A stretch of 64,000 bases of DNA. Origin: Lytechinus pictus. Lineage: Eukaryota. Of the stretch, positions 4,543 to 64,000 are shown piece after piece. Location of the stretch: positions 33,730,001-33,794,000 of the forward strand of contig NC_087245.1 in NCBI RefSeq assembly GCF_037042905.1. Direction: 5' to 3'. The translations under genes were made by a program, and so were the position numbers. Position 1 is the stretch's first letter. Every line of letters starts with the position of its first letter. The notes beneath the pieces were generated by a model. The model was not told where the DNA came from and did no database searches. It saw only the letters and a list, made by a program, of their open reading frames with translations.

Positions 4543-39569
<35,027 letters not shown>

Positions 39570-40355: not shown

Positions 40356-42807
40356 GGAGGCTACTATTCCCAAGGGAATATCATATTAATGGGCATTCCA
40401 CATCCTGCCGTTGCTGTAGTCATCAAAATGTGAAGGAAACAAGATCAAAAACAATTTTTCAAGAGAGAGGAATGAACATCTTGACCTGTATTTCTGAGAA
40501 TATTAGCTCCATTCCATTCTATATGGAAAAAAATAGATGACAAGTATCTAACTATTCAAATAGAATGTTCCAATCCTCTCTCTTTTTTGTAGTGATATGA
40601 TGTCATCTTATTTAGAGTCCATTCTTTATAAGAAAATTGCATATTTCATATCTATATTTATAATCAAATCATATTTATTTTTCAATCAGATTGAAATTCA
40701 ATTTTTTCATGCATATGAAATCCAATCTTTCAAAGCAAAGTCGAATTTGAACCGTTGGATTTCTATCTTTCCAACCAAATTGGATTCCAGTTGGATTTCA
40801 ATCTTTTTTCAAAAAAATTATGATGCCCAACTGCCCCAACAGTATAGTTTCTATCTCCACAAATGAAGTCAATTCTAAGCAGTTGATTTTCTTTTCCTTT
40901 AATTTCATCTTTATTTCACAAGCCAACTGAAAATGCTCATTAAAATACATAAAATACAGTATAAACAGTTATGAAAGACGGACAATATCCAAGATTTGCT
41001 TTTTATGTCTTTATTTCAGGATGTTGTATTGATCAGGGGCCAGTCTCAGAGGCTCAGCAGCCAATCACAATCCAGGTGGGTGTTTCATAAAGCTGTTCGT
41101 AAAGTTACGCACAACTTTACGAACGACTGGAACATGTTCTTAGGTCATAAATCAATTATACAAGGAATCATCTAGCATAAGAAAGGATCACCAGTTGTCC
41201 GTAAAGTCATTCGTATCTTACAAACAGCTTTATGAAACACCCACCAGGCCTCCCTGGTAGTTACAATGATGATAAAGATACCTTAATCATAATTTTTTAA
41301 TGAAATTGAGCCCACAGTGTTTGACGTTGATCTTAAACGAGTAAAATTACAAACTTTGTAAGGAATGTAAGCTCCGATATCTTGCCTATCACTTTGGATA
41401 CATGCATGTCTACTTTCATATCGATTTTTCCTATGAAGTGAAAAAGAATAAAGCTACTTCTTGTTGTCAATAAACAAATCGCAATGACAGAGAGTTGAAG
41501 ACTGGTAATGTTAGTTCAATAAGAGTGGTAGGAAATGTATGTGTAGAATTAATGACTATGCATCTTTATCAGGATGTGAATTTGGTACTGAAACCTGGGG
41601 ATATTTTCTTCAACATTTTTTCTGACAAGTTGTCAGATCTTCCTTTGATTCTGGTTTGGCTAAGAGGCACTACTACTGTCATGGTATTACTGTCAGATAA
41701 AACAGGACTTGTCAGATAAAAAGTCCGAAAACTCCTTTCATGAAATGCTCCCCAGAACCTCTCACTTTCCCATGCATTGTCAATCAGAAGAAGAGGATCA
41801 GGGGTCTGTTTTATAGAGTCTCACAAATATGGTAACTATTGTTACTACCATGGAAACCTTAATTGTGATTGACTGATGGGTCCTGTTACCAAGGTTGTTG
41901 TCATAAAGGCACAGTTACCATAATTGTAGCTGTCAATGAAGCAGGTCCCCTAAACTGTAACCTTTCCAAGTTATTGTTAGTGGTTACGGTACATAACTTT
42001 GCCCCTTTCTGTACTGAATATACACAGATGAGATATGAAATGCAGCCATTTTATGTACTCATTTTTCTGCTGAAAGGTGGTATCTTCCTAAGCTATGAAA
42101 TATAAAGTTATTGTATGAATTCACAATTTTTTTTAGTACACAAATATATATCATATTAATTATGATACATTCATAAATCGTTCATAAATTTGTGTGGAAT
42201 TTTATTTATTTTAAATGTTAAAATCATATGGAGCGTAAAGGTGTATGTTTTTTGACACATGGCATGAGCGTGTTCAGTGACAAATGTCAGCAATATTTCT
42301 TTGTAAAATAAAATGAAATTCAATGAATTTTGAACAGGCAAGAGACATTCTTTTTTTTTTTACTGCAAAACTATAGAAAATGATATGTGTTAAAACCTTG
42401 TGTATTTTTCTTTGTCCAAACTCGTGAAAAAAAATTCATGGCATCACAAAAAAAAACATGATGTGATGAGTGTTTTCCCTGCATGAAGCAAGGTTAACTT
42501 GCATTGCTTAAGTTACCCCTAGGTAAACTTGCATTGATAAGTTTACTTTGGCCAAACGTTTATCGAGATAAAAAGTGACCTGTTAGTAAGGACCACTTAT
42601 CCGCAGAGATGATATTTACTATTCTCCTTGAATATGTGATAAATGTATATTTTGAGCAAGTTTGCAAGAACCTGTCTCTAATGACCACCTGCCGTAACGT
42701 AAAGGCAAATTTAAATCTTTGGGGTTCTTTATAGACAGTTTCAACGGCACCTACAAAGTTAGAAATCCAAATTGTTTTCTATGTAATATATTACAAAGAC
42801 CTATTGC

Positions 42808-43049
42808 CTACATGTATGTACTTGTATCGGCGCCATCCATCTGAATAATAGTAGAAAATGCTACAAGGAATTGAGTCAGGGTGAAACCGATGATGCCACC
42901 TGCGACAGCGTCCGGGAGATAGTCTTCAAGGAACTTGAGCTGTGGGTATAAGGATGTAACCTGTCCTGGATCTCCCTTAATGAGAAAGAATATGAGGCAT
43001 GGTACCAGGTCATCTCCGCCTACTTGGTAATCATCGACACCCATTTTAC
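42808..43049 (-). CDS. Last coding exon of a VPS9-domain (Rab5-family GEF, VPS9D1-like) protein
   Basis: caacAG|GT AAA ATG; translation ...QVGGDDLVPCLIFFLIKG...LKFLEDYLPDAVAGGIIGFTLTQFLVAF matches the VPS9 pattern G(A/G)DDLLP...L..LE.F......G..GY.LT; TAG at 42810-42808. Confidence 0.82.
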
Positions 43050-43345
43050 CTGTTGATCATAATGAAAGTATCAGGAATAATGATTACCAAAACCAGACAC
43101 CAAATCGTCTTGACTGATATAGGAATTAGAGTGTGCATGGTAACTATATAGAAGGCATGGTCTTGAACTAGAAAGAGAAGTGAGGAATGAAAAGAGGACT
43201 TATTTGATAATCAGAGAACAGATAGATTGCTTTAAGCAATGTGGTTGCCGTTTGAATTACCGACCGTACATCAAGTTGGTGAAATTGGAAAAGATATCAT
43301 AATACAATATAGTTATAATATCAGTGAATAACTTGTAACACTTAC

Positions 43346-43994
43346 GTGAGACCTGTTCTTTGACCGACTCAGTCAGAGCTTGAAGACACATGACCAACCA
43401 GCGAAGCTTTGCCAAAGGAAACCTTTCTTGTAACACCATCCTCAGACAACAGTATGGCTGGCTGAACATCTCTTCAAAAGTCAAGGGTCCTTCCAGCAAA
43501 CTGTTTGTGCTATACCTCTCTTGTCCAGGATTAGGAAGGGTGCCCTGTCTTTCAGAATGCCCGTTTCGGAATTCTGCCATGATGACAGAGAAATCATCGA
43601 TATCTGGCGAAAAAAGTGTCACATCACGCAAGAATGGGTACAAGTTTTCCATCTCCTCAACCAGATTTGATGTCACAGATGTAAGTGAGATACTGTCCGC
43701 ATTTACGTCACGTTCCCCTACATCTTCACAGCTGGCATCCTCTTTTACCTTCTGGCTACTGACCTGACGAAGATCTTCCACTGTCGTTGATTCTCTGTTA
43801 AATTCATGTATAGATGATTTGTAAGACACTGGCCTAGTGGAATCTTCATCAGTTTGGGTAGTCTTTTGTGTGATTTGTGATGTAGAGATTTCGAGAGAAG
43901 ACTGGTTTATCTCAATAACTCGTACACTTCTTTGCTTCCTTTTCCTGGGATCATCTCGTGAGTGGCGCAGCTTTACCTCGCTGTCATATTCGAG
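43346..43994 (-). CDS. Large internal exon of the VPS9-domain gene (copy 1, complete)
   Basis: ttcatgcAG|CTC GAA TAT; open for 649 nt; donor C|GTAAGT (phase 1) joins the next exon as CGT; ends in the VPS9 N-terminal helices (QPYCCLRMVLQERFPLAKLRWLVMCL). Confidence 0.78.
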
Positions 43995-44888
43995 CTGCAT
44001 GAATGTGGTATTGGACATTCATGATTGCATAATGCATTTGATATTTCTAAACTTTATCCGTCACAGCATGCATAGAAATATGACCCTAAGTTGAATATTT
44101 GCCTTACTTTTCTCTGTCCGCTTTCCCCTATTTCTCATTCTTTTACTTTCGTTTCCCAAAAACTCCCCTAATTTTGTGATTAGTCATCACAATAGAGTGG
44201 TAAAATATGAATTTCAGTGGCGGCACCTGGAGGAAGGGGGGGGGGGGGGACGGTCAGAACCTTTGCTGCCTAGAAAAAATATGTATAGTAACAAGCATGT
44301 AGTCTTTAACCCTAAAAGTAGAGGGTGGGCTGAATCCACCCCCCCCCCTCTACATTTTTTCACGATAAATCCGCCGAGTGAAAATTTTTCAACCGCGCCG
44401 CTTACTGACTTTTTACTTTCAAATCTTGTTCAACTTTTGAGACCAAATTTGCGATGCCCGAGTACGCGGTTACGAAATTATTCAACATTTTGTAAGTGCA
44501 CTGCATGTCAGACTCAAAACTGCTCAAAAACGTGAATTCTTGAACAAATTCAATGCAAATCGCGTATTTAGCCAAAATTCGTAAATGTATCATTATTTCT
44601 ACTTTTATTGATTAAACTGAATTACTTTTGTCTTGTTTATCATCAGGGTCATATTTACCAAGTATGATTATAACTGATGTAGAAATAAAGCAAACTGAAC
44701 AAAAGACTAACAATTTTGTAACAGACTAATACCGCTTTCAGTAACTCACGATTCTTCGTTCCGCATCAAGCCCAAACTTACATAGTCGGCACCACGTACA
44801 TGATGTAATAAAAATCGCGATCAGTAACTATAGCAGAGCCGCTCTACCTTTATGATCACCCATTCTAAAACTTGGGCACATAAGGGGT

Positions 44889-45147
44889 AGCTTGCATCCT
44901 CATTTACCTTCTGGCTACTGACCTGACGAAGATCTTCCAATGTCGTTAATTCTCTGTTAAACGTGTGTATAGATGATGGGACAGACAGTGGCCTGATGGA
45001 ATCTTCATCAGCAGCCTTCTCTGTGATTTGTGGTGTAGAGATTATAAGAGAAGCCTGGCCTGTGTCAATGACTTGTAGACTTCTTCGCTTCCTTTTCCTG
45101 GGATCATCTTGTGAGTGGCGCAGCTTTACCTCGCCTTCATATTCGAG
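44889..45147 (-). pseudogene. Truncated duplicate (copy 2) of the VPS9-gene large exon
   Basis: LEYEGEVKLRHSQDDPRKRK...LRQVSSQKVNEDAS is nearly identical to copy 1; same acceptor; ends abruptly at a repeat junction near 44889. Confidence 0.8.
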
Positions 45148-45772
45148 CTGCATGAATGTGGAATTTGACATTCATGATTAAATAATGCATTTGATATTTC
45201 AAAAATTTATCAATCACAGCATGCATAGAAATATGACCCTAAGTTGAATATATATGCCTTCTCTCTGTCCGTTTTCCCCTATTTCTCATTCTTTTACTTT
45301 CGTTTCCAAAACACTCCCCTAATTTTGTGATTAGTCATCACAATAGAGTGGTAAAATATGAATTTCAGTGGCGGCACCTTGAGGAAGGGGGGGGGGGGGT
45401 CGGTCAGAACCTTTGCTGCCTAGAAAAAAAAAATATGTATAGTTACAAGCATGTAGTCTTTTAAGCTGTCACAAGCAGCTGTCAAGTAATTTAAAAATTC
45501 ACTACTGTTCAAAGCTACAAATTTTCTCATTCGATTGCTAAGCTCTCTTGGATTAAAAAAAAAATGTTTCAATCATAGGGGCATTAGGAGAGCTCCCCAG
45601 TTTGAATCTCTGTCCTATATTTGTCCACCCTACTATAGAAATCGTGGTGCCTCTACTGATGAAGTTGTGTTGGGATACCCGACCCCCAACTACGGAAAAA
45701 GAATTTAATGGTTTTGAGTGAGTAGCCAAATATCTGACAACTAATTTTTACCCCTACATATGATTACGATGT

Positions 45773-46264
45773 TTATATTTTTAATAATTTTAAATGACTG
45801 AACACCTTCTGCAGCTGGGGACTAGAAGGGATGCACTGTTTTCCAGATTGAGACTCCTGTACAGGTTGGTCATCAGGAATATCTCTCTGATCCGTTGCTT
45901 CAAGATCCACATCATTGAGGAATGGGTAGAGGTTTTCCATCTCCCTAACCAGATTTGAAGACACGGATCGATAGAATGCACTATTCTGCTCTAAATCTTC
46001 ACCACTGAGAGCCTCACTTTGGTCATGATCTTTATGCGTATCAGCTGCAGCTCCTTCTGCTTGGTTGATGGAGCCTTGCGTTGATATTGAGCTGGTACCT
46101 CCGGTAGATGTACCATAATATTCTTCTATAAATGATATTGGATCAACTTCTGGAATTCCAGACTGAAGAATATCAATGACCCTTTCACCACTCAAATTCA
46201 TGTTTCTTGGATCAGCCGAAGGGAGGAGCATCTGAAGTAGCTTCGCTTCAGCATCATATGCGAG
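45773..46264 (-). CDS. Diverged paralogous copy (copy 3) of the VPS9-gene large exon; alternative/terminal exon or relic
   Basis: ttctctgcAG|CTC GCA TAT GAT; LAYDAEAKL...DPR...SVSSNLVREMENLYPFLNDV vs copy 1 LEYDSEVKL...DPR...SVTSNLVEEMENLYPFLRDV; open to TAA at 45773; only a weak phase-0 donor (AAG|GTGTTC at 45806). Confidence 0.6.
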   Translation of the reverse strand, partial: LAYDAEAKLLQMLLPSADPRNMNLSGERVIDILQSGIPEVDPISFIEEYYGTSTGGTSSISTQGSINQAEGAAADTHKDHDQSEALSGEDLEQNSAFYRSVSSNLVREMENLYPFLNDVDLEATDQRDIPDDQPVQESQSGKQCIPSSPQLQKVFSHLKLLKI

Positions 46265-48400
46265 CTGCAGAGAATTAGAATTTGTTCATAGAATAACATC
46301 AACAAATGTTATTCAAAAAAGATGGTTCATGAACCACATTCTTGCCTGATTTTTTTCAATCAAAATATGCGAAATTATCTTTTTACGCATAGATGGCCTC
46401 TAACTTAATGATCCTCATGAATACACTTGTATTACCCAATAATTATCTGTACCAACTCTCATCAAAATTGAACTAGAGACAAAGAAATTAGAGCAAGTTT
46501 ATACAACCTTTTGACCCCTAGATGACCTTTGACCCCATCACACTCATGAACACACATGTGGTATATACCCAGGATCATATGTACCAAGTGTGAACATAAT
46601 TGATGCACAAATAAAGAAATGAGAACGAGTTGAACAAACACTGACCTTTTGACCCCTAGATGACTTTTGACCCCATCACACTCATATGTGTTATTACCCA
46701 AGGATCACATGTACCTAGTGTGAAGATAATTTATGCACAAATAAAGAAATGAGAACAAGTTTAACAAAACCTTGACCTTTTGACCCTGGATGACATTTGA
46801 CCCCATCATCGTCAACAATACACATGTGGTATTACCATGCAAGGATCATTTAAACCAAGTGTGATAAAAAGTGATGCAGAAATGAATAAATGAGAGCAAG
46901 TTGAACAAAAACTTCAAAAAGGATGGACAGACCTCATTTGACCTTTTGACCCCTAGATGATCTTTGACCTCATCATTCTCATGGGTCTCACATGTAATAT
47001 TACCAAAGGGTCATATTTACCAAGTATATCATAACTGACGTAGAAATAAAGCAAAATGAACAAAAAACTAACAATTTTGTAACGACTAATACCGCTTTCA
47101 GTAACTCACGATTCTTCGGTCCGCACCAAGCCCACTAAAATAGTCTGCACCACGTAATAAAAAAATGCGTTCAGCAACTATAGCAGAGCCGCGCTACCTT
47201 TACGATCACCCATTCTAAAACTCGGCACATAAGGGGTAACTGTCAACACGCCATTTATCTATTTGACATTTTCTGAACCTAGAAATGTTCTGATTATTTT
47301 TTTTTCTTGATTCGTCTTCGCATGGGGTCCTAGAACAAGCTCAGCTTGGTAGCTCAAATGCCAACTTTGGGCAATTTTTGTAGTTTGCATAAATCCTAAA
47401 TGGCCGCCAGATGCAATCTTGAAAACTTAACTTTCGAACCCCTTGCCCCAGCATGATGAGGGATGCCTCTTTTTAGGGGTTCTGTAGTGTGTAGAATAAA
47501 TTTCTATTACTGTTTTCGCAATATAAGGTTATATTCAGGTCAAATCCAAGATGGTCGCCAGACGTACGCCATCTTGAAAATTGTCTTTTGAAACCTTTGC
47601 CCCAGAATCATGAATGATACCTCTTTGTATGTATGAGTTATTTGGTGTGTTGATTCAATTGCTGTTCTTGATTGTGCAATATATAGGATCATCTTAAGAT
47701 CAAATCCAAAATCCAAACAATTTACTATCCGAGTGTATTAGCTCATATAAGGATTTTTTTGGTAAGAATGATTATGGTTGCCAGATTTCGTCATTAAGCG
47801 CTCATATTCAAATGAAACCTCTATAGGTCTGCATGGGCTATGGTAAATTTTTGGTGATTTTATCAACGTTTTCTGTCCATCCATACTTTTTTAGGCACTA
47901 CTGAATAGACCTCAAATTATTATTTGAATTAAAAAGTGTTTTATCGATATTTTTCAGAAATCAAAGTGTCCAATGATAGGTATAGGCATACGTTCGTCTC
48001 GAAAGACGATGGTGTACCGCTATAAAGGTCTTACACATTTTTAGAGTAGTTGTAGAGCCCCACTCTAGAGTGGCAATCTCTGGCAGATGAATGAGGATGG
48101 CGCTGAGATAGGTTTAGATAGGGATGCTGCCCCGCCTTCCTCCTAGCTCTTTCTGTTTATAGTTCTGCCATCTTGACACCTACAACAAGAGTAACTCTCC
48201 ATAGATACTACAATGAGCTACATCTTCCCAAGTGTTAAGTTCTATGGCGGCAGGTTTCATGTCACGTTTGCAAGTGCCTCTATAACGGAGGTGTGGTCTA
48301 CCGATGGCGAGACCCATCACGCAGCTCATATTACAGCATGTCTTCTGGGATACGCCCAGGGTTCATGCGGCGAACAAGCCCCCAACCAATTGATCTTAGG

Positions 48401-49818
48401 CAGGCGCGTAGCCAGGGGGGGCGGTGGGGGCGGTCGCCCCCCCCCCCAAAACGTCCCCAAAAAGAAAAAAAAAAGGGAAAAAGAGGAAAAAAGGAAAAGG
48501 GAAGGGAGGAAAGGGAAGAAAGGTAGCTTTGTCGGTTTTTTTTTTCTTTTTATTCTTTATTTTTTTTCTCAAAAGAGAAACTCCTTCACTCTTGCTTTCA
48601 ATTTATATATGAATTTTGCTTCCGCGCTGCGCGCGGTTAAATGACAATATTGAAGTTCTCCATTGTTTCCCCCACCCTTTCTCTAACTCTGCTTTTCCAC
48701 CTCAGCTATATGTGTTTGTTGCCAGTTAAAGTTCAAATGTATAGATTAGGGCATGGAATTAGAGTAAGGTTAGGCCGAAGTATATGAAGTTATCTTTTTT
48801 TTTATTGATCGCGCAACTTCTGGTCGGGTCGGCTCCGGCGGGTAAAATCTTTATATCAATTTCTGCCGTCACCTCCATAAAGTCAACTTCTCCCGCTTTT
48901 CAGGTCATTACTAAACAACCATAATTTGGGGCAAACAGGTTCCTAATTGAAGAGGAATGTATAAAATTCGTGTCGTATTAAATAAAAAAGTACAATATTT
49001 TTTTTCAAATTCTATTAATCTTCATGTTATTTCCCTGCACATTCATCTCCTGTCCTGTTTTGCGCCCTCAGTTTGAAATTTTGAATGACACTTAGGTTTC
49101 TTTATAATTAAAAATGAAGCGCTTCAGGATAAGTCAAAGAAATTAGGCATCCTTTTTTATATTATTTTAATAAATCACAGAAGTTTCAACTTTTTGCGCA
49201 CTATTTTCCTTGTAATGAAGTTCAATAATCTTAGGAAATCAATTGAATTAGAGCCGATGGGGTATTAGATATATCTGCATTTGATGAAACGTCCGCCCTT
49301 TGAAATTTCAGAGTTTTATTGCTCTGCGCGGGGAGGAATATCTTCCTCCCGGCATATACACTTCTTCTCCTCTGTTTTGCGAGTTAAAGATATGCACTGT
49401 CGCTAAATTGTTTGTAATCAAATCTGATATTTCCAAGGAAGTATTCAATATATCTTTGAGAATACCCTTTTCTCGGGACCCTTTTCATGGCAAAAAAAAT
49501 TGATAAAACGCTTTAGCTTCCGCGCTTCGCGCGGGGTTATAATTTCCTCCATTGTATTCCTTTTTGTGCGTTCACAATCACTTTTAAAAACAAGTTCAAA
49601 ATCACAATAAAGTCAACTGAATTGGAGCTGATATAGGTACTAGAGACAAGAGAGACGGTTCCTTTTCATTTTAATTTATGAAACACCAAAAGCTTCGCGC
49701 GGGAGGGGGAAACTCCCCCTCCCTGCACCCACCCCCTAGGGAGCGCGCTCTGTAAGTGTTGGCACGCTTCGCGTGCATTTACCGCCCCCTCCAAAATGAA
49801 ATCCTGGCTACGCGGTTG
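48401..49818. mobile_element. hAT-type non-autonomous element inserted in the LINE
   Basis: 8-bp TSD ATCTTAGG (48393-48400 / 49819-49826); TIR caggcgcgtagccag / ctggctacgcggttg. Confidence 0.9.
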
Positions 49819-51042
49819 ATCTTAGGTGCCTTTGACTAAGGAGTGAGAATAAGCTGATGACACCAGCTCGCTGAATGACCGCTATAGGCCTATTTGTCAC
49901 TCTGTCCTGTCACTTAATGTGCTGGAGACGTTTGCGGTAGCTGAAATGGAAGGTGTTTAGCTGATTTTCCTAACTGACGTACGTTGTCCAGGACTCACTT
50001 CCGTACAAGATGATGCTCAAGGGACACTGTTCCGCTGAGTGCACAGTTTGGTATTCTGGGTCAGCTGGTTGTTGCTAAAAACGCGTTTATTAAACTTGGC
50101 CATGACTTTGGCAGATTTCACTGTCTTGGTGCTTATCTCTTTGTCCAGTGAGAGGAAGCTGGAGAAAATGGTGAAGGAGTCCACCACCTTTAGACGAGTG
50201 CTGTTGGTAGAGATATCTGGGGGAGAGTCACAGGGACCTGAAAAGCGGGGGTGCTGAAGCACCCCCAGAAATTTTCATGGGGGTGCTGCGTGTATTATCT
50301 TCCATAGGCAGCACCCCCTACGAAATCAGGTTCCTCCTGAATTTTTTTTAAATATGTTATAATGTACATAATTATCACATCCGACAATCGCAAATAATTT
50401 ACATAGTCTTTCACATATTCCAATAGCATCCCTCCTATAACGCGACTCAATCAAGCTCCGGCACTCCGATACAAACGTGGTCGCGCGCGATACGTGATAA
50501 CTATAGTTTACACACTACTCGTTAGCAGGAGGGACATATGGGATATGGGTGTGGTTGGACTTGAAATTGAACTTCCAGGTTTTATGTCGAGTCAAGTGTG
50601 CGCGCGCCCGACCGCCCGTGTTTTGCATAAACAATTACAAGTCAGACAGTAGAAATCAAATTTCACAGTCTTTTTCACCCTGCCCCATGGCCCTGGGTAG
50701 CGGGGTGCTGGGGGTGAAGCACCCCCAAAATTTGGGGGTGCTGCATGTGTTATTTTCCATAGGCAGCACCTGGAAATCTAGTGGTAGGTATAATAGATGA
50801 CAGAAATATAATGAAAATGAACGATGTTTTGTAGACCCCCCCCCCCCCCACTACAGAATTTTCCGACATAGTACTTAAAATATTGTTTAAATTCACCATT
50901 TTTTCAGATCGGAATATCAAATATTTTCTGCTCGCGCGTCGCGATCGCATTATTGATTGTTATAATAAAAAAAATGTATTTAGAATGCCCAGATACTGGG
51001 TCTAACTCTAAACACGCGCACGCATGTTTATTCAGATAGGAG

Positions 51043-53249
51043 GGCTTATTATAATCACTCGGGTCGCGTTCGCGTTCGAAATCACTCGGGTCGCGTTCGT
51101 AATCACTCGGGTTTTGGATTTTTGGCGATTTTTTTTATTTCGATGCGATTTGATGTCTTCAATGGGACAAACACGCTGGGAAAATGAAATTAAATTGAAA
51201 TTCTAGTTTCGTGTTAAGCTGACAAGTGCCTCAAATAAAATGCACCCGCCTACTGCTTAACATAACAAACAAGCAAATCAGCCATGTGGCTCAACTATCC
51301 TAGAATACATCCAGACTTCTACTATTTTTATACGAGGACTCCGAGTCGGAACTTGCCATATCTGCCACATCGATATGACATCGCAGGGGCCGCGGAACAG
51401 TTTTCAAAGTGGGGGGGCTGAGCCAAAAGTGGGGGGGGGGGGCTGACCATGCAAAAAATCACAATCATATGGTAATTTTTACGTTTTTGTACACGGTTTT
51501 GGAAAAAAGTGGGGGGGCTGAAGCCCCCTCAGCCCCCCCCCCACTTCCGCGGCCCCTGCATCGTCATTCCCATGTGCGGACATGCATGCCTGCATGCAAT
51601 GGCCCCAAGGCGGAACCCGGCCACGGTTGGACACGGCGTGCATCGGTAGCATGGAGCAAGGTAACGTGAGTCGAGCCGAGTTAGATCCCACGTTACAGTG
51701 CCAGTCAGTCCGCAGCTCGTCCAAAAGTATTTAATTCAGCGGTATGCATAGCCAGCCATCCGTGGTTTAATGCATATATACGTAATTAGACCAAGAGCTT
51801 CGGTCTCTGCAATGTACGTTGTTCCGCTAAACTCCGTTAGCTCCACTCACCAATACAGAGACGGAAGTTCTAGCTCGATCTGTACAGGGACTCAATGGCC
51901 ATATGTTATGCATTAAGTTCCAATAAAACGGGGAAGTGAAGTTGCGCGACAGCCGAAGCAATTAGTTACTGTTGTTTCCCCTTTTAAGTTTATTTTCCCT
52001 TTTTTTGGTGCATTTTAGGACAAAACGGAATAATAATCTTTATTTGATACAGTTCTTTTCATATATTTTTATGAAATAAAGACAAAAATCGATGAGCGCC
52101 GTCTGGGGGATTTTGCATTGTTAACCCCGTAATGATGGTTGCACCATAGCGAGCCGTCTGTGTACGAGGAGAAATAAAAATGTTAAAAAACTCGAAACAG
52201 ACGGCTGCCAGCTGTCTAATACGTAATGAACTTTGAGGACGATCTTTCCGATAGGCGTTTAAAAATTCTGCTCTTAATTACTGTCCATTTCTCATAAAAT
52301 TTGTCTTATTTTATAGATAAAATGGCCATATCATGTTTTAAGTAACTGGAGACTTAAAAATTTCCCTACCTAAATTCTCGAAACATTGCATTAGGTGATG
52401 TGCTTAATTGATCTTCTTTGTGCTCGCGTGCCAAACGTATACGTTGAGCTGAACGGGGATCAGTCTTTCTCTCTCTCTGTCTCTCCTACCTTTCCGAAAT
52501 TAAAACGGTCCCTCGATCGGACATAGTTATTTAGACGCAGGACAAATAATGCTCTGACAACCAAACTAACTTTTCGTCAGCATCAGTAAAAATGTGAATG
52601 GGCTTTTAAAAACTAATACTAAAACTGATCTAAAATTGATCTTAGATCGATCTTAAAATTGATTTTGGAAATCGATTTTAAATTAATTTTAAAATCGTAA
52701 TTGTACCTGTTCTAATTAACCGATTTTAAAATCGGCTCCCGATTTTACCACAATCGGCGATCACCTGCCAATCTTCGATCATGCCCCTTGAAGGGAAAAT
52801 CGGATATAAAATATCGGCGTAGATCACGTTACCTTGCTCCATGCTACCGATGCACGCTGTGTCCGACCGTGGCCGGGTCCCGCCTTGGGGCCATTGCATG
52901 CAGGCATGCATGTCCGCACATGGGAATGATGATGTAATATCGATGTGGCAGATATGGCAAGTTCCGACTCGGAGTCCTCGTATAAAAACAGTAGAAGTCT
53001 GGATGTATTCTAGGATAGTTGAGCCACATGGCTGATTTGCTTGTTTGTTATGTTAAGCAGTAGGCGAGTGCATTTTATTTAAAGCACTTGCCGGCTTAAC
53101 ACGAAACTAGAATTTCAATTTCATTTCATTTTCCCAGCGTGTTTGTCCCATTGAAGACATCAAATCGCATCGAAATAAAAAAAATCGCCAAAAATCCAAA
53201 ACCCGAGTGATTTCGAACGCGAACGCGACCCGAGTGATTATAATAAGCC
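51043..53249. mobile_element. Foldback/long-TIR element (arms 51043-51669 and 52824-53249, ~430 bp near identity)
   Basis: ggcttattataatcactcgggtcgcgttc...ggagcaaggtaacgtga is inverted at 52824-53249; no TSD visible. Confidence 0.85.
51384..51558. mobile_element. 175-bp MITE with 5-bp TSD inside the left foldback arm
   Basis: CATCG|CAGGGGCCGCGGAA ... TTCCGCGGCCCCTG|CATCG; absent from the right arm. Confidence 0.88.
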
Positions 53250-53431
53250 ACGCAGCTTGTTTTGGGGGTACTCCGGGCTAAAAATATTTATATCAAATAC
53301 ATTTTATCAAAATAAATAAATTTTATGAAAATCTGATAACAAATAGTTAAGTTATTTAATTCTAAAGTTTAGCAATATTTTATGAAAATGGTGATATGCA
53401 TGTCGTCATGAATATTTAATAGGTGGGTTGA

Positions 53432-53764
53432 CATAGACGGAAATCTGTCTCCAAAGGTAGGGGGGACCAGGGCCTGGAAAATTTGACAAGCAAAAAAAAA
53501 AAGGTTATCACCCTAAATGTAAGGTCATTTTAACCCTAACAAAATTTGACAAGCCCCCCCCCCCCCAAAAAAAAAAAAAAAAAAGGTTTTCACCCAACAT
53601 GTAAGGTCATTTAGTCCAAAATACATGTATTTTGATTGTGAAGTGATGTATTTTTCTCCATCATGAAAGACCAAAAATAGTAGGGGGACATCTGACATTG
53701 TGTCCCCTACTATTTTTGGTAGGGGGGACACGTCCCCCTGTCCCCTCTGGGATTTCCGCCCATG
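53432..53764. mobile_element. hAT-type MITE
   Basis: 8-bp TSD TGGGTTGA; TIR catagacggaaatc / gatttccgcccatg. Confidence 0.85.
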
Positions 53765-56700
53765 TGGGTTGAAGATGTCACATCCCCACTATCCTGTTTC
53801 TTGTTTAATTACATAAAAATTGTTTTAATTGTTTCATACCAGTGTGAATGATATGTCTCCCTTATAATGAAATAAGTTGCAACAAAGAATATCTAATGGA
53901 CTAAATCAGTTGTCAATTCAACTGTTTTTGGTTCTTGAAGGGAAAGTATTGAATAAAACTAACTTTATATGATAAAATACAAAAGAACAAGTGGGGATAT
54001 GACAGCATCAGTTTGCTCAATGAATATTAATGAAGACATGCATAAAACTGTTTTCACCGGAATAATGCTAACGTGGCGCTCAAAGAGTTAAGGAATCGAA
54101 TGGGAGGCTTATGCAGTATGTGAACCAGGCCAATACCTTCAATACTATCATGATTAAGTCACACTCAAGTTACAGATGGCAGGCATGAACAAGTAGGTTG
54201 TTGGATTTGGTGTTCTGCAATGTTGCCTCATACTCCGGGATGTGATATAGAATGGCTGCAGCAGTGTATGCCATAAGAGCAAATCGGCGTTCATTGAAGA
54301 GGCTGTTCTTCTTGTTTTGCCTGCAGATGCAACCTCACACTCGAAGGTCTCCCACATGGATGACTTGTGTCCGGCATAACTTACTAGTTATGTCAGTGCC
54401 TGTAATGCTGCTATGACCACACTCTTCTTGAGGAAGAATTTCAGGGCATGTATGCAATTAACTTTTCACGAAGCCCTAACTTGACTTCATGCAGAACAAG
54501 GGTAGAGATATTACTTGCATCAAATACCTCACATGTGTGGCTCACAGACAACAAGTGTAGAAGGATGTGCTGACTGTTAAGGGATGCTGATATTTTATGC
54601 TTGTAGTAATGAGTAGATCGAGTGGTAATAGTGATACATGTACATTACATGCGATGATGAAGGGAGCTGTGCTGTAACTACTTGTCCATACTTTCAAACA
54701 AAGCAAAGTGGATATAAGATTTGGGATAATGGGCATGAGACAAGAAGGGAAAAAAGGAAGGCTTAAACTGTTGATTGTGATGCACACGTCATCTATAAGA
54801 ATCAATATTGTAAGAATTCGCATAAATTGGAGAAAATAAGTAGAAATTTGATTAAATAATAATATAACATGAATATTAACACTAATATATGAAAATGAAT
54901 ACTATAAATGGGTTCAGTGACCCCCAAAACATAGGTTTAGGCACCAAAACTAGGCTAAGGGATGAAAAAATGACTGAGTTATGGCCAAAAACATGTTTTT
55001 TTTGGCAATCCGGCGGCCATCTTGGATTTTCGGGTTTTTCGGCCAGGGCACCCTGGATTTCGCATTTTTTTCATTTTTTTTTCTGATTATGGTGTCAGTG
55101 TGCACTAATTCATCAAACTAAGGTGTGATGAGCATGTTCTGAAAATGTCACCCTCTATAGCCCACCTCTATTGAGATGTCCCGTTTTTAGGTCTGAAATT
55201 TCATTTTTATTTCAGCTCGCATCAATTGTATAGTTATACACCTATCCTCTTCATGATTAGAAAAGTGCTTAGAATGTCTCGTTTTTTAGTATGAAATCTC
55301 AATTTTGTTTCTGCTCGCGCTTCGCTCTCGCATCGATTGTATAGTTATAGTTATATATCCTGTTCATGATAACAAAAAGTGCTTAGAATGTCCAGTATTT
55401 AGGTCGGAATGTCAATTTTTTTATTAATAGGAAAACTAGGAATTACAAGCTCTGCTTTTTAATAGTTTGCCCTTCATATCCTCATCTAATTGATATATCT
55501 GTCTCCAATCCGAACGTAATTCAGTTGTATAACATTTGTCTTATTTATTATTATGAATAATGGTGATGTATTGTATTATTTTATTATTAATGATTTACTG
55601 TCTTTCGATGGACGTTACATCAGCACAAAATACATTAAATCCATTTAAATACATTTAAAAAAATAGCTCGCGCTTCGCGCTCGAGTTATCTAATTATGTA
55701 TCTATGTTATTTTATAAGAAGAAAGCTAAAAAGTGACTGTCATATATATATATGTGTGTGTGTATGTTGGTTGGTGGGTGTGTGTGTGGTGCCCTTAGAG
55801 GTGTGTGTGTAATTATGGAAAACTCACTTGTGCCCCCCCCCCCACCTCTGAGGAGAGATTTCAGCACCCCACTGACAAAATCGTTCCCAGGTCCCTGGAG
55901 AGTCAGTGCCCGGAGCCAGTGCCTTGAGTCAGGATTTCTGTCTCCTTCGGGTTAATGATTAATCCAAACTCATTACATGTACTACAAGACATAAGCCTGA
56001 CTAGGGCTTGCAGTCCTGCTTCTGCGTTAGAGGCAAGGGTGGCGTCATCGGCGTACATCTCACTAAATGAGAACCTTCCTGGCCATTGTTCTGGCACGGA
56101 GTTGGGCAATATTGAAGAGTTTCCCATCTACTAGGGTAAAAAATAGCTGCCTTCTGTGCAATCGCCAAATGCATACTGGAGAAGAATGGATGATATCCCA
56201 AAGAGTTTCAGCCTTGCTTCACGGCAATATGATCTAAGGGAAGGCATCAGATGTTGCAGCGTTGTAGCAAACTGTGCTGTGCATGTCCTCATTTAATGAT
56301 ATGACCATCTGTAACAGTCTTGATCGGGACAGCCTTTCTTCTGCAGGAGACTCAATATTCATTTCCTGACCAAATCAAATGCTTTTGTCAGGTCTAAAAG
56401 TCCAATGATAGAAAGGAAGGTAATTAAGAAATTAAAATACACCATATTCCTACCTTATTCGAGTTTTCGTCTTAGTTCTAGAAAGTTATTAATTCATTAG
56501 TTTATTATTTGAAATACAATAATGGCCGGATTCTATGTAACTAGTCGTATTGGTCCCCAGAATAGCCAGTAAACTGTGTCACAAAGTGAACAGGAATGTT
56601 AATCTCAGAAGCATTTTAAATAAAGGGAATAGGAGTCTCAGAAATCCGACCAATCCTAGCTAGCCCAAGGGAACAATAGGCTCTCAGGTTAGAGTGCTCT

Positions 56701-56899
56701 GGTGGAATATGAGAGGTATATGTTGTGAATGTTGTGTGCTGGGCAGTGATACATGGTACAATGAGCCATGCATGAATGCTTGCTGTATGTTGTATGGGCT
56801 TGCCACTCGGCAGAGCAGCTTTGACACTGGTCATAACCGGACCTATGCGCTGAGTGAGTGAATGAGGAGGGGTTGAGATGTGCAGCACCTAACTACTTA

Positions 56900-57060
56900 T
56901 ACCTCGGTCACATTTGCTCTACGGCGGCCGTACGGCGAGTCGAAAACAGCCGTTTTAACATTTTTCAACCAGCTAAATATAGGTGGTTTGAATAAATATG
57001 AATAAAACGGCTGTTTTCGACTCGCCGTACGGCCGCCGTAGAGCAAATGTGACCGAGTTA
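56900..57060. mobile_element. Hairpin MITE (~55-bp near-perfect arms)
   Basis: ctcggtcacatttgctctacggcggccgtacggcgagtcgaaaacagccgtttta and its exact reverse complement; TTA/TCA flanks. Confidence 0.85.
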
Positions 57061-60000
57061 TCACTTTTGGTTGGCATCGAAGTTGAATTCGGGCAAGACA
57101 GGCCAGGAGAAGACTGCTCTTAGCTCCACATCATGACTCTGAGACCAGTAAGTTATATTTTAGTAATATACATGTATCTCATGATTCATAAAAAAAAATT
57201 ATATGATATATACCACTCAGAATTTAGGGTGTGGCACCTGAACTAAACTCAAGATTCATTATGGGCAATTGTTTAAGTTTATATTTTGCTTATAGATAAC
57301 TGGAATTGATCATCGGATTAATTCATATTTTTGATCATTTGATGTATTTTATATTTTTGCTATACATGTATATATTTATATCCTTTTACCATAAAGAAGT
57401 CAATTGACCGGCTTAATTGGTTGATGTTCTGTATTAAAAATAAAAAAGAGATAACAATGTGCCCTGATCATAAGTAAGAACGGGCTCTACAGCAAATGTT
57501 TAGTTTTCCTTCTTAGATATTGGAAAATAGGGTGATTTAATTTATCAATTATTGTCTCGCCTGCATAACAGAGCGAGACTATACGCGCCGCTTTCCCGAC
57601 GGCGGCGTCGTCAACATTGAAATCTTAACCAAGGTTAAGTTTTTGAAATGTCATGATAACTTAGAAGGTATATAGACCTAGTTCATAAAACTTGGACATT
57701 AGGGTAATCAAGTATTACTGAACATCCTGCCTGAGTTTCAGGTCACATGACCACGGTCAAAGGTCATTTAGAGTCAATGAACTTAAACCATGTTGTGGGA
57801 CTCGGTCGAAATTTTAACCAAGGTTAAGTTTTTGAAATGTCATCATAACTTAGAAAGTATATGAACCTAGTTCATAAAACTTTAGACCGAAGGGTAATAG
57901 TGTATATCACTGAACATCCTGCCTGAGTTTTAGGTCACATGATTAAGGTCACGGTCAACAAACTTTGGCCATGTTGGGGTTATTTGAGGAATTGTCATCA
58001 TAACTTTAAAAGTTTAGAGATCTAGTTCATGATAAACTTGGACATGAGAGCAACCATGTATCCCTAAATACCATGTGCGAGTTTCAGGTCACATGACCAA
58101 GGTCAAAGGTCACTTGGGCTCAACGAACTTTGGCCATGGTGGGGTTATTTGAGGAATTGTCATCACAACTTTAAAAGTTTATGGATCTAGTTAATGAAAC
58201 TTGGCCATAGGAGCAACCATGTATCCCTGAATATCATGTGGGACTCGGTCGAAATCTTAACCAAGGTGAAGATTTTGAAATGTCATCATAACCTAGAAGG
58301 TATATGAACCTAGTTCATAAAACTTAGACATAAGGGTAATAGTGTATCACTGAACATCCTGCCTGAGTTTTAGGTCACATGATTAAAGTTACTTACGGTC
58401 AACGAACTTTGGCCATGTTGGGGTTATTTGAGGAATTGTCATAACTTTAAAAGTTTAGAGATCTAGTTCATGATAAACTTGGACACGAGAGCAACCATCT
58501 ATCCCTAAATATCATGTGCGAGTTTCAGATTTGAATATATATCAATGCATTGAATTTGATTTATTATTGTTGTGTAAATTCTTAGCCAACATATCTATAT
58601 AAGGAGAGGAGCATCTATCGCCAGACATTGCAAAACCGTGCATAGATCTGACAAACTGAGACACTCTAGGAGCACACAAAAAACTCATTTATGTATACCC
58701 CAACTAAGATTTTATTTCACAGTCCATCTCGAAGCACTCATTGGACACTCTTATTTAAAAAAAGTATATAGAGAAAACATTTTTGTCTCGCCCGAACGAA
58801 GTTCGGTCGAGACGTAGTAATCACTTTTCCTGTTGGTCCGTTAGTCTGTTCCAAAATGTTTAAGTTTCTGTTCAACTTGCTCTCATTTCATTATTTCTGC
58901 ATCAATTAAATTCATACTTGATACATATGATCCTTGGGTATACATCATATGTGTTCATGAAGGTTATGGGGTCAAAGGTCATCTATGGTCAAAAGGTCAA
59001 ATGATATGTGGTCGTGTCTGTTCTTAAAATGTTTTTTTTTTCAACTAACTTATTTCTTTATTTCTGCATCAATTATGTTGCCACTTGGTTCATATGATCC
59101 TTGGGTAATACCACATATGTGTCTATGAGGATGATGGGGGTCAAATGTCATCTAGAGGTCAAAAGGTCGACTATACAGAGCGGAAGTGCTTCGTATTTTT
59201 ACCTTTGAGAGGAATTTTGATTGGGGCCTAGTGTTGAGTACTATCGTTAAAAAACTGTTTGGTCAGCCCCTAGTGCGGGTCTGGCGCTGGCCTTGTGCTG
59301 ATAAAAGACGCACCCAAATAGCCCGCGCCATTCATAAACTCAAAATTTTACGACTTAGCCCGGGCCTGATCTAGACCAGCGAGTTACTGAAAGGGGTATA
59401 ACAGACTAACAGGAAAAGTGTTCACTTGGTCTCTGCCGAACTTGTTCAGGTGAGACAAAAATTGTCATTCGTTTCCTTTATCTTCCCCTTCTTCTTTTTA
59501 TTCTCCTCCATCACTCCTGTTTCTCATCTTTCTCTTCCTCTCCCCTCCTTCCCATTCTCCTCCTCCTACTTCTGCTTCTTCTTTCAATTCTCCTCTACCT
59601 CCTGCTCGTCCTCTTCCTCTCCCCCTCCTTTTTCTCCTTCTTCTTCTTCCTCTTCTTCTCTTGCGTTTTCCCTTTTCTTCTTCCTCTGGGAATGATGATG
59701 GTGATGATTATGATATTGATAATGGGCCCCCAACATATTGGCGCCCCTCATCATAATCCCAATTGTTGTTTCGCCAACCGGACGTTAACTCGATCGAGAA
59801 GGATACCGTTTTCCGTAACTTTTGTTGTTGTTTTTTACTCGCACCAAGCCCGCGCTAAAATTGTCCTTACCATTGCGTTCAGTAACTATTGCAGATCCGA
59901 CGCTAATTTCACGATCACCCATTAAAAAAGTCGGGCACGCGAGCCTGGCGTTGGTCTGGTGCTGATAAAAGCAGCGTAAAAAAGCCTGCGCCAATGATGG

Positions 60001-61083
60001 CCAATCATAAATTCATTTTTTTTTACTTAGCACGAGACTGGTCCGGATCAGCGAGTTACTGAATAAAGGGGTATAAGGGATCCACGTGTCGATCCTACCG
60101 CCACAAACATTATGACGAATAACTTTGCATCCGCAAGTCACTTTTCAAACAAACTTAAGTTGTAGATGTCCTTGGGTACCGGAAAGCTATGTGTGCAGTC
60201 GGAGCTAGGTAACATGGTAAGGTCATAGGTCATTTTAAGTCAAACGTTAAAATCTACCTGCAAGACTCTCGTGACACGTAATTCTGCAACAGTGTCTCAC
60301 TTTTCAACCTAACAGTGGTTGGAGATGAACTAGAGGACCTGCAGGTTTGTTATAGTGTAATCTGAGGTCACATGGTAACGTCAAAGGTCATTTCTAGTCA
60401 AACGTTGAATTCACCTGCAAGACTCTCTTATGACACTTAACTTTACAACCACGCTCTGCTACTGTGTCTCACTTTTCAACCAAATTTAGGTTGTATAGAT
60501 GTACTAACGGGACCGACATACGTTATGGTGCAATACAGAGCAATGTTTTATACATAGCAATGTTTTCCCGGCTTTCAGCCAGGAGGTCAAATGTCATTTC
60601 AGGTCAAATGTTAAAGTTTACGTGCGAGACTCTCTTATGATGCATAACTCTGCAACCATGTCTCACTTTTCAACCAAACTTGGGTTGTAGATGCACTAGT
60701 ACGTGACCTACGTGTATGGTACAGCCAGAGGTCACATGGTAAGGTCAAAGGTCATTTCAGGTCAATCTTTAAAGTTTACCTGCAAGACTTTCGTATGACA
60801 AATAACTTGTCAACCGTCACTCACTTTTAACTGAACTAGGGTTGTATGCACTAAAGGGATCTGCATACACGATGCCGTAGGAGTTCATGTAACAAGGTCG
60901 AAGGTCAATTGAGTTCATATGTAAAAGTTGTTTTGAAATGTTGAGTTTTCCTTTTCTCTAAATTACACTTAGTAGGTGTGAATATCCAACTCCTCCCCTT
61001 TTATGGTATTTATCTATCCACGTTTAAAAGAAAACGACACAATCATGACATTTCCTAAGGAATTTTATGGAACGGTGACTCAC

Positions 61084-61206
61084 CACATAAACCTTTAAAA
61101 TATCTGATAGCGTTGAGGAGAAGAATAAGGCTTCATACGATGCCCAAATTTCTGTTTCAATTTGGTTATTCCATTGGCCCAGGAGTTCAGTCATCTTTTC
61201 AACAAC
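61084..61206 (-). CDS. Upstream exon of the VPS9-domain gene (VVEKMTELLGQW...YEALFFSSTLSDILKVYV); may extend to 61441 with two nonsense codons
   Basis: Strong donor GTG|GTGAGT in phase 0 matches the phase-0 acceptors at 46264/45147/43994; joined peptide EALFFS..L..ILKVYV|LAYDAE resembles the VPS9D1 segment E.PFFSPLWPLLLALYR. Confidence 0.55.
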
Positions 61207-62219
61207 CTGATATCCAATTAAGAAAATCATGAAATCATGGCAGTTATATTCAATTGGGTCATATACAATCGGCAATTGGGTAATATATGAGTCAGAAAAA
61301 TGTCCCATAACTTGAAGTTATGAACATTTAATCATTGATTTATTGATATGTCCTGGTATAGACTTATCCTCTCTGCATAATTTATGTTGGTACCATTTTC
61401 ATAAGGATCTTTGCAGGAATGACTGACTACGAGACAATGTCCTAAAGGTCGTAAAATTTCAGTTGCGCCAAGTTGCTGGTGAAGATGAAAAACAAGTTAT
61501 TGCATGCAGAAAGACACCCATCATTCTAACCCTCGGACACATGACACATTACCTCTATCGCCCACACACATTCACCCATCCATTCATACTCCCTCCCCTA
61601 CCCACAACGCTTTCTAAATACTTCATGAACTCTTCATATAGCAGTGTTTAAATTTCGTAATTTTCTCTATAATCTCATTGGTTATTGGTCTTTCGTTGAT
61701 CAGAAACGGCCGTTGCCCCATTGTTTAGCTTCAAAATGGCATGTCTGGTATGGAGGCACTTACCTAAGTTGAGCCCTTCACAAGTGTGGGTGGGTGTGTG
61801 GGAGATGTCGTGTGTGAGCCTGGTGATGTGTTGTTTAAGGGTGTGTAACGGTAGGTGTCTTTCTGTCTGCTTTGTTTCATTCTTTACCCAACAACTTGGC
61901 GCAACTGCGATTTTACGTACTTCTCTTTTTATACATATAAATATATATATATACACACACACACAAACACCTCACACGCATACCCGCTCACACACACGCA
62001 CACATGTATATATGGTTTTCTTTCGGCACTATTGCTTTTATAGGGGAAATAAATTAGTTCAAATTAGGCTTAGGCTCATAGTTGATTCATTTGAATAAAC
62101 TTACGGTGGACATCACCTTTAATTATAACTACCTCACAGCTCCCACATGATCTGATGGACTCGGCGACTATTTAGTGGTAATAGAATATTATGAAATAAG
62201 GACCATTATATTTGCTTAC

Positions 62220-62330
62220 CTCTGAGAAGTGACTCCTTATTTTGAAGGTAGTGGTTTGGGCGCAAGATTGATAATTCGTTAATGATGAAAACCAGTCCTT
62301 AGCTCCAGATGAGCGACGTTGCTTTGATTT
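62220..62330 (-). CDS. Candidate further upstream exon (unassigned)
   Basis: tactAG|AAATCA ... GAG|GTAAGC, 111 nt open in phase 0; no recognisable homology. Similar minus-strand GTAAG donors near 62104 and 63756. Confidence 0.25.
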
Positions 62331-62999
62331 CTAGTATAAGCATATATAATTAGGAAACATCACTCTTATTCAATAATATACACATTTTCATTTACTGTAA
62401 GAATTTAAAAAATGTAGTCATAGTCTGAAAAAAGTCTTAAAGTTGGAAAATGTTTTCATTAAAAGATTAGTAAGTTGCGCTTTCAAGTGAAAGTTTTGAT
62501 TGTTGCAGGTGCTACATGTTATTTAAAAATGGCCCTTTCATCTAGTTATTTTTACCTACATTGTTTTGAACAATAATAGTAATAATAATAATCCGCGTTT
62601 ATATAGCGCTTAACACATCGGAACGACGTCACTAATCGCTTTGCAGAAATATTATTATCACCCCGGTCATCGGATCCTTGCATGCCCGCATACAATGTAT
62701 GTACCTTCTCCACTCCCTGGGGAGCATTCCAACAAGAGTTCCAAGACCAATTGCTAAGCGTACTACATAGGCTTTCACATTATACCAGGTACCCATTTAA
62801 CACCTGGGTGGAGAGTGGCAAATTGTAGATTGACGCCATGCCAAAGGACGCTAGGCCAAGGTGGGATTCGAACTCACGACCCTCTGATTACAAGGCAAGA
62901 GTCAGAACCGCTACACCACGGCGCTTCCAAAGAGTGCATTTTCATGAAAGCTGTTGTAAATTTTAGAATTAAAATGCATTGTATTTCTTCCATTTTTCC

Positions 63000-63490: not shown

Positions 63491-63569
63491 AAGTGGACCC
63501 CCCCAAAAAAAAAAGTTTTTCTTTTAGTGATGAGCTCTTGCTTCTGCTTTTTTCCAATCTGTTGAATGG

Positions 63570-63712
63570 AAACTCGAAATGTAGACTTGAAACTCAAACT
63601 GTTGACTTGAAACTCCAAAGTTAGACTTGAAACTCGAACTGTTGACTTGAATCTCGAAATTTAGACTTGAAACTCGAACTTTTGACTTGAAACTCAAAAT
63701 GCAGACTCGAAA
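63570..63712 (+). repeat. ~20-bp minisatellite (gacttgaaactc core)
   Basis: gacttgaaactc(g/a)aa repeated about 6-7 times. Confidence 0.85.
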
Positions 63713-64000
63713 CGCGAAGAAATATAACACTTTCAGAACTGAATCACCCAACTTACCAGCCTTGGTCTCGGTGCAGTATGTTCGGATAAAAAGTTTATTG
63801 AGGTTTGATTGCATGTATCCAGCACTTCAAGAATCAGAGAATGATGTGCCATCTTCATGGTGATATCGCTCTGCAATTTCTTCAACAAAGTGAAAAAATA
63901 AGAGATAGGTTTGGCTTTTGAGCTTACAGTTTCTGAAGATTCAAATTCACGTGTTTGGAAAATGAAAACAAATTAATTTCAGCGATTATCTGAGTCTTAA

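Follow-up and report, generated by a model that had tools for sequence, protein, structure and literature searches.

Organisation of the locus

The window analysed here, a stretch of 64,000 nucleotides, contains on its minus strand the Lytechinus pictus gene LOC129261368, in which a large exon lies in three tandem copies ahead of a last coding exon with the catalytic helices of a VPS9 domain. We number the copies by their acceptors, with copy 1 at 43994, copy 2 at 45147 and copy 3 at 46264. In the direction of the minus strand, the features of the locus are:

63757..63870, minus strand: upstream coding exon e1; phase 0-0, canonical AG/GT sites, open; 37/38 identical to the LOC135155690 protein
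62220..62330, minus strand: upstream coding exon e2; phase 0-0, AG/GT sites, open; 35/37 identical to the LOC135155690 protein
61084..61206, minus strand: upstream exon with donor GTG/gtgagt at 61084; 40/41 identical to the LOC135155690 protein
45806..46264, minus strand: copy 3; 459 nt, 153 codons, phase 0-0, donor AAG/gtgttc at 45806
45148..45461, minus strand: duplicated intron flank before copy 2; differs from 43995-44307 at 14 of 308 aligned nt
44923..45147, minus strand: copy 2; 225 nt, 75 codons, phase 0-0, donor CAG/gtcagt at 44923
44645..44892, no strand assigned: dispersed repeat; 88% like 47007-47241, partly like 59872-59938
43995..44307, minus strand: duplicated intron flank before copy 1, paired with the copy 2 flank
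43346..43994, minus strand: copy 1; 649 nt, phase 0-1; decayed block A (see below), polar insert and first VPS9 helices
42808..43049, minus strand: last coding exon with the VPS9 catalytic helices; Pfam VPS9 at 1.6e-07; joint to 43346 in read contigs

The first-pass annotation of this DNA had described three minus-strand tandem copies behind the same phase-0 acceptor, and all of them were recovered: tgcag/CTCG, in phase 0 each time, is present at 46264, 45147 and 43994. The open frames behind these acceptors run for 163 codons in copy 3, 108 in copy 2 and 245 in copy 1, and the in-frame stops end at 45773 (copy 3) and 44821 (copy 2). Copy 1 is complete, as had been claimed, with its donor at 43346 leading to 43049 and hence into the exon with the Pfam VPS9 match. 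Copy 2 is indeed truncated, meets the repeat and can be read to the stop at 44821, but there is no need for the exon to end at this stop: the donor at 44923 and a second in-frame donor, AAG/gtaaat at 44908, which yields an exon of 240 nt and 80 codons, had been missed. The match of copy 2 to copy 1 extends as far as 44889, where it meets the border of the dispersed repeat. Copy 3 proved to be diverged from copy 1, open for 163 codons, devoid of the VPS9 helices and still in possession of the SNLV..MENLYPFL motif, all as described; what had been overlooked is that its 5' end is the nearest of all to the ancestral exon.

Copy 2 and copy 1 can be aligned over 582 nt at 88%, of which about 310 nt belong to the intron flank. 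For copy 3 against copy 1, whose proteins are about 33% identical, the Smith-Waterman score is 140, which none of 1000 shuffles attained (maximum 59). As a test of chance, the 374 YAG sites of the 14.8-kb upstream intron were inspected, and not one of them opens a frame of 153 codons. An alignment of the 60 nt ahead of the acceptors of copies 3 and 2 likewise gives a score matched by 0 of 1000 shuffles, while the score for the 60 nt ahead of the copy 1 acceptor was matched in 49 of 1000. The three exon copies are real. A tblastn search of the 64,000-nt window returned no fourth copy, a search for a VPS9-helix remnant in the intron 3' of copy 3 found none (score 27; shuffles up to 31), and the copies taken on their own give Pfam matches below the cut-off.

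The RefSeq model of the locus is without the upstream exons (61084-63870), and the link of e1 and e2 to it is one that we infer. In the LOC135155690 protein, the equivalent of 61084..61206 is joined to a copy-3-type exon; by this precedent a joint 61084>46264, if used, would remove an intron of 14,819 nt.

Joining of the copies in gene models

The L. pictus protein XP_054755412.2 (LOC129261368, 513 aa) consists of copy 3 from Met12, copy 2, copy 1 and the last exon. It uses the donors 45806 and 44923 and matches the window letter for letter, with codons 12-153 of copy 3, up to donor 45806, and the whole of copy 1 represented exactly. Thus, a public model of this very locus joins the copies in series. 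The internal-repeat isoform through the 45806 donor, which had been proposed as one of several products, is thereby present in public gene models. The public annotation already follows the serial reading, which is one of ordinary tandem exon duplication and of no new splicing system.

For comparison, 20 sea urchin proteins were gathered by homology searches and cluster look-ups, a set beside which other isoforms may exist. In all eight multi-copy proteins among these automated models the copy-3-type exon is joined to the following copy, and wherever the upstream exon is present (six proteins) it is joined to the copy-3 type, never to copy 2 or 1. The four isoforms of LOC135155690 contain the upstream exons, a copy-3-type exon, a truncated copy and a full copy, of which the truncated copy ends at the first donor in X2 and X3, at the second in X1, and is absent in X4. 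LOC129261368 has a single model, with copy 2 included, and inclusion together with skipping is modelled only in LOC135155690. LOC135155692 and the L. variegatus gene LOC121418324 (X1-X2) combine a copy-3-type exon with a full copy.

The reading frame was followed along several splice paths. Upstream exon, copy 3 and last exon; upstream exon, copy 2 and last exon; and upstream exon, copies 3 and 2 and last exon all result in a frameshift, while all five tested paths through copy 1 are open. Taken together, the seven exons from e1 to the last form a stop-free frame of 640 codons with canonical sites.

In its headline, the first-pass annotation had proposed an array of mutually exclusive or truncating exons: the upstream exon would select one of the copies, with copies 3 and 2 yielding proteins without the VPS9 domain. 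This reading draws on the likeness of the three acceptors, all in phase 0, and on the open frames of copies 3 and 2, which continue as far as stops at 45773 and 44821. According to PMC5740500, mutually exclusive exons are similar in length, keep the frame, show no in-frame joints between copies and show bridging joints. The present copies are homologous neighbouring exons with equal 5' phase and in this respect resemble Dscam-type clusters. In contrast to such clusters, they are unequal in length (459, 225 or 240, and 649 nt) and 3' phase (0, 0 and 1), and the gene models of all eight multi-copy proteins join them together in frame, which breaks the no-joining rule. With 3' ends in phase 0 for copies 3 and 2 but in phase 1 for copy 1, the copies cannot stand in for one another. 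The claim that the upstream exon can join any of the copies stands with regard to the donor at 61084 and the phase 0 fit, but a join to copy 2 or copy 1 is seen in 0 of 6 proteins. Upstream exon plus copy 1, and upstream exon plus copies 2 and 1, are both in frame, and judged by frame such products may occur as minor forms. All in all, we regard an array of mutually exclusive or alternative terminal exons as very unlikely, and the headline lacks support: the models join the copies, and copy 3 or 2 needs copy 1 for the frame. Serial tandem duplication implies a single ancestral exon that was copied together with its acceptor, to which the single-copy relatives and the homologous acceptor flanks correspond, and copies that stand together in one open frame, as they do in the gene model XP_054755412.2.

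The serial joins are those of automated gene models, whose versions have changed over time and to which the 5' half is added by inference in the case of LOC129261368. An earlier model of the locus (P0018) comprised copy 1 and the last exon only, starting from an intronic ATG, and the present XP_054755412.2 takes a Met within copy 3 as its start and omits the upstream exons. Near-identical paralogues may, moreover, mislead the read mapping that underlies such models. With this in mind, we consider it probable that the copies are internal repeats joined serially (3, 2, 1, last exon), which likely lengthen a disordered insert, and are not alternatives to each other.

Evidence from reads

Reads of run X1 (kind unrecorded; 0.39 of words) were aligned to 42720-62700 at 90% likeness, and their depth is not taken as a measure of expression. 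In the resulting contigs the intron between copy 1 and the last exon is removed (43346>43049, depth 70). They also contain another GT-AG joint, 43342>43022, at a depth of 64.9, whose frame would stop after four codons; a further contig, with a depth of 28.2, crosses the last intron unspliced. Among the joints listed (15 of 194, mostly intron repeats) none is of the type 3>2, 2>1, 3>1 or upstream exon to any copy. The letters of the run at 45064, 45054, 44915, 43765 and 42918 encode the residues of LOC135155690, so that the contigs mix paralogues and their joints cannot be assigned to the locus.

A contig of this run at 44595-44952 (depth 28) spans the junction of copy 2 and the repeat, passing the copy 2 donors unspliced; with 13 of 358 letters differing, it may derive from a paralogue. 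It could represent RNA that terminates in copy 2, as an alternative-terminal array would have it. The contig across the last intron is unspliced as well, however, and contigs of this kind fit pre-mRNA or DNA. Proteins with a truncated VPS9 domain do occur in the set: P0007 arises through another acceptor, and the L. variegatus proteins P0004 and P0009 through read-through of the last donor. In these proteins, the truncation arises at the last intron and is not due to copy 2 or 3 serving as the terminal exon.

In another contig of the run, 56918 is joined to 47150, out of order within the upstream intron. Back-splicing was considered as its origin and rejected, as the ends are not canonical on both sides.

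That the tandem arrangement is an artefact, with allelic or paralogous pieces strung together wrongly in the assembly, might be suspected from the existence of highly similar paralogues, the mosaic pattern described below and the out-of-order contig. However, an identity of about 33% between the copy 3 and copy 1 proteins lies far past allelic distance, and a layout with copy 3 followed by copy 1 is modelled in L. variegatus (P0004, P0009), too. The junction of copy 2 and the repeat is found in the contig mentioned above, which may be that of the paralogue. We therefore give an assembly or haplotype artefact next to no credence.

Ancestral exon and complementary retention of its ends

The content of the exon is present in a single copy in 10 of the 20 proteins, namely in a Lytechinus paralogue (both species), S. 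purpuratus, a close relative and two Diadema species. Besides these and the eight multi-copy proteins, the set holds a C-terminal fragment and the older model of the locus with copy 1 alone. In the single-exon relatives, the exon consists of block A, about 200-230 polar residues and the VPS9 helices. Block A is defined here as the first 32 residues of the exon and block E as the VPS9 helices.

Block A is almost invariant from Lytechinus to Diadema. Compared to the single-exon Lytechinus paralogue (P0012), copy 3 retains 27 of 32 residues of this block, and copies 2 and 1 retain 14 of 29 (Fisher p=0.006). The same order is obtained with S. purpuratus (copy 3, 26/32; others, 13/29) and with Diadema (copy 3, 22/32; other copies, 10/29 and 8/29). 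Among the copies, block E is found in copy 1 only, where 36 of 44 residues are identical to P0012. Judged from these comparisons, the start of the ancestral exon was retained by copy 3 and its end by copy 1. This disposes of the view of copy 3 as a decayed remnant that was coding until recently, given that the start of the ancestral exon is best kept in this very copy (27/32).

Between block A and the VPS9 helices lie 196-230 residues in all six single-exon proteins measured, 394-483 residues in all four multi-copy proteins measured and 399 in the protein of the window. The parts of the insert contain 68-70% polar or proline residues, compared to 46-50% in blocks A and E. The net effect of the duplications, as far as the residue counts indicate, is likely a doubling of the polar insert from about 200 to 400-480 residues. 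We take the insert to be disordered and block A to lie in a helical bundle or in the first VPS9 helix. Structure predictions for P0012 (8 sequences) and the LOC135155690 protein (11 sequences) gave mean pLDDT values of 33 and 31 and were unusable. Among the Atlas feature matches for the Diadema counterpart of the upstream exon are clusters of DUF5601 and of the alsin helical array at 0.90, which we treat as a lead; the upstream exon 61084..61206 is likely part of a helical bundle ahead of the VPS9 core.

Substitution rates and mosaic ancestry

Over 86 codons, copy 2 and copy 1 differ by 7 synonymous and 28 non-synonymous changes, corresponding to a dN/dS of 1.17. This value is indistinguishable from 1, with a bootstrap interval of dN-dS that spans 0, and positive selection on copy 2 relative to copy 1 was accordingly rejected. 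The first-pass annotation had named a ratio near 1, in combination with a lack of transcripts using copies 2 or 3, as grounds against the array; the ratio does lie near 1, but this fits an unconstrained linker equally. Neutral evolution of copy 2 would fit an unconstrained linker, a tolerated passenger without function or a dead exon. For the motif shared by copies 3 and 1, dN/dS came to 0.23/0.41 over 21 codons, which had been picked as conserved and are too few to be used.

The exons of copies 2 and 1 are more diverged than their flanks (35/259 vs 14/308, p=0.0002), and the same applies to the synonymous sites (7/58, p=0.03). Flanks that are more alike than the exons would fit a homogenisation of the flanks or a mosaic origin. 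At informative residues, copy 2 sides with LOC135155690 at 16 of 21 and copy 1 with LOC135155692 at 16 of 21. For copy 3, 26 marked sites agree with LOC135155690 at 14 and with LOC135155692 at 7, and for the 3' part, 27 marked sites agree with LOC135155692 at 17 and with LOC135155690 at 3. This pattern of residues means that copy 2 is no simple recent duplicate of its neighbour. A mosaic generated by crossing-over or conversion among tandem paralogues is likely, as far as can be judged from proteins only. Hence, the alternative that had been offered to the array, namely remnants of tandem paralogues, has support as a history of paralogue origin but fails for copy 3, which is no decayed remnant.

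The relatives comprise LOC135155690, LOC135155692 and the single-exon paralogue LOC129266104 in L. pictus and LOC121418324, LOC121431201 and LOC121431497 in L. variegatus. The records of LOC129261368 and of these relatives all read 'uncharacterized protein' and name no function, and the homology matches listed in our word-based searches are sea urchin proteins only.

VPS9 domain and exchange activity

The spliced product was checked with the Pfam VPS9 model (PF02204), as had been proposed, and scores 43.1 bits against a cut-off of 27. In XP_054755412.2 the match extends over residues 400-505 and starts within the copy 1 exon. An alignment with Rabex-5 is weak (E 0.07), and in it D, P, E, Y and T are spaced in agreement with residues 313, 317, 351, 354 and 357. 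These are the Rabex-5 residues Asp313, Pro317, Tyr354 and Thr357 of PMC3096779 and Glu351 of PMC4379102. Like the helical bundle-VPS9 core of Rabex-5 (PDB 1txu, 2ot3), the window protein shows the Pfam VPS9 match and keeps the positions of Asp313, Pro317 and Thr357. In contrast to Rabex-5, Glu351 is replaced by Ile and Tyr354 by Phe, and a long polar insert precedes the Pfam region. The set of catalytic residues of an active exchange factor of the Rabex-5 type is thus incomplete. Phe occupies the position of Tyr354 in all 16 family proteins that contain the region (4 of the 20 are without it), with Glu351 kept in 2 of the 16 and Thr357 in 6. In another VPS9-like exchange factor, the Tyr-to-Phe exchange at this position strongly reduced activity, according to PMC4379102. 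The designation as a full GEF in the first-pass annotation is consequently doubtful, and from the residues present the exchange activity may be weak, altered or absent. The exchange of Tyr for Phe is common to the family back to Diadema and is therefore no sign of recent decay.

This bears on a further reading of the locus, by which LOC129261368 would be a paralogue that has lost its 5' part or a transcribed pseudogene, serially spliced but with a non-working product, while the upstream exons belong to a separate transcript. Two proteins, XP_054755412.2 and P0002, start at a Met inside copy 3, and the mosaic ancestry, the dN/dS of about 1 in the insert and the failure to retain Glu351 and Tyr354 of Rabex-5 would all be compatible with such a gene, as would the frame-ending joint 43342>43022, whose depth of 64.9 comes close to the 70 of the normal joint. 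Yet all seven exons have canonical sites and share the stop-free frame of 640 codons, the upstream exons share 95-98% identity with their LOC135155690 counterparts, which are modelled as joined to copy 3, and the Tyr-to-Phe exchange is family-wide. We consider a gene without 5' part or a pseudogene unlikely and retain serial joining in a protein that would include the upstream exons.

Proposed history

Before the split of L. pictus and L. variegatus, the exon would have been duplicated together with its acceptor. The upstream copy would then have lost the 3' part with the VPS9 helices and acquired the donor at 45806. This copy kept block A, and the downstream copy kept the VPS9 helices while its block A decayed, a pattern that is seen in the present copies and for which the process can be surmised. 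Because block A and the VPS9 helices are retained in a complementary manner, the whole protein likely needs both copies. A later duplication may have given rise to copy 2, which was cut at the repeat and presumably rescued by donors latent in the parent exon: copy 1 still contains, at 43764 and 43749, the donors that correspond to those used by copy 2, and these are unused in gene models. With 225 or 240 nt and phase 0-0 in either case, copy 2 leaves the frame intact whether it is spliced in or passed over. The mosaic locus could subsequently have been produced by unequal crossing-over or conversion among tandem paralogues. Such a gene would encode an HB-VPS9-like protein with a minimum of 640 residues, which probably acts as a weak or atypical exchange factor of the Rab5 family or as a Rab binder.

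Tandemly duplicated exons are found in about 10% of animal genes, as cited in PMC9013439, and an imprecise gain of introns via latent donors after tandem duplication is described in PMC3443670. As in known tandem exon duplications, the acceptor was copied, new donors lie in former exon sequence and coding sequence was added. The present case differs in that the copies keep complementary ends of the parent exon and in that the duplicated unit is large (about 220-290 codons) and resides in an array of paralogues with varying copy numbers. In the literature accessible to the searches, we found no paper on the gene or on a VPS9 duplication in sea urchins. The titles and abstracts listed for intragenic duplication with subfunctionalization contained no like case.

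Tentatively, and as a possibility that we hold to be the less probable one, a catalytic core to which copy 3 contributes its first part and copy 1 its last would lock both copies in place. Crossing-over would then vary the number of half-exons, and with it a loop of 200-480 residues, in an echinoid-specific, Rab-binding pseudo-exchange factor.

On a small scale, the locus shows clearly how a duplicated exon can become fixed, with each copy keeping a different end of the parent, and how an incomplete copy can be made into a frame-keeping cassette by latent donors. As single-exon and multi-copy paralogues exist within one genus, the steps are testable. The points that merit keeping are the complementary manner in which the copies decayed and the family-wide loss of the catalytic tyrosine, and the latter raises the question of whether echinoid VPS9 proteins are exchange factors at all.

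Probable upstream exons of the VPS9 gene

Three intact upstream coding exons, sharing 95-98% identity with the L. pictus paralogue LOC135155690, lie at 61084-63870. The RefSeq model of the VPS9 locus does not include them and is likely 5'-incomplete. Between two of these upstream exons (62220-62330 and 61084-61206) lies the following stretch, for which no counterpart was noticed in the relatives and which is perhaps due to chance:

61392-61474, minus strand, short open stretch bounded by AG...GT

An out-of-order contig and other features of the window

In X1, a sequencing run of unrecorded kind, a single contig of 2492 nt fuses 56918 directly to 47150, in an order that departs from that of the window. 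It covers two segments:

47150-48389, 3 letters differing from the window
55803-56918, 5 letters differing from the window

The junction adjoins two elements, one of them palindromic (56899-57061), the other a dispersed repeat (47007-47241), and canonical splice sites are absent from its ends. The contig may represent a structural variant, the intron of a paralogue or a local assembly error. Elsewhere, the window holds the following features:

57548-58528 and 21029-21877, two blocks of a very high-copy repeat, with the highest contig depth in the X1 mapping
23571-24627, trinucleotide microsatellite of about 1 kb, resulting in long homopolymer frames
about 25944-33558, plus strand, exons of a peptidase M16C gene, with Pfam M16C_assoc in two stretches

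The latter gene, presumably encoding presequence protease, is oriented tail-to-tail with the VPS9 gene.

Last intron and catalytic residues

The X1 contigs contain a second GT-AG joint of the last intron (43022-43342), located 4 nt beyond the normal donor and found at about the depth of the normal joint; its use would stop the frame after four codons, with loss of the catalytic helices. In the last coding exon (42808-43049), all echinoid relatives that hold the region (16/16; this exon and P0001-P0020, sea urchin proteins from homology searches and cluster look-ups) carry Phe at the position of the catalytic Tyr354 of Rabex-5. Among P0001-P0020, Glu351 (Rabex-5 numbering) is retained in Diadema only, and the single-exon proteins have either Ala or Met in place of Thr357. 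The echinoid VPS9 relatives possibly constitute a pseudo-GEF family.
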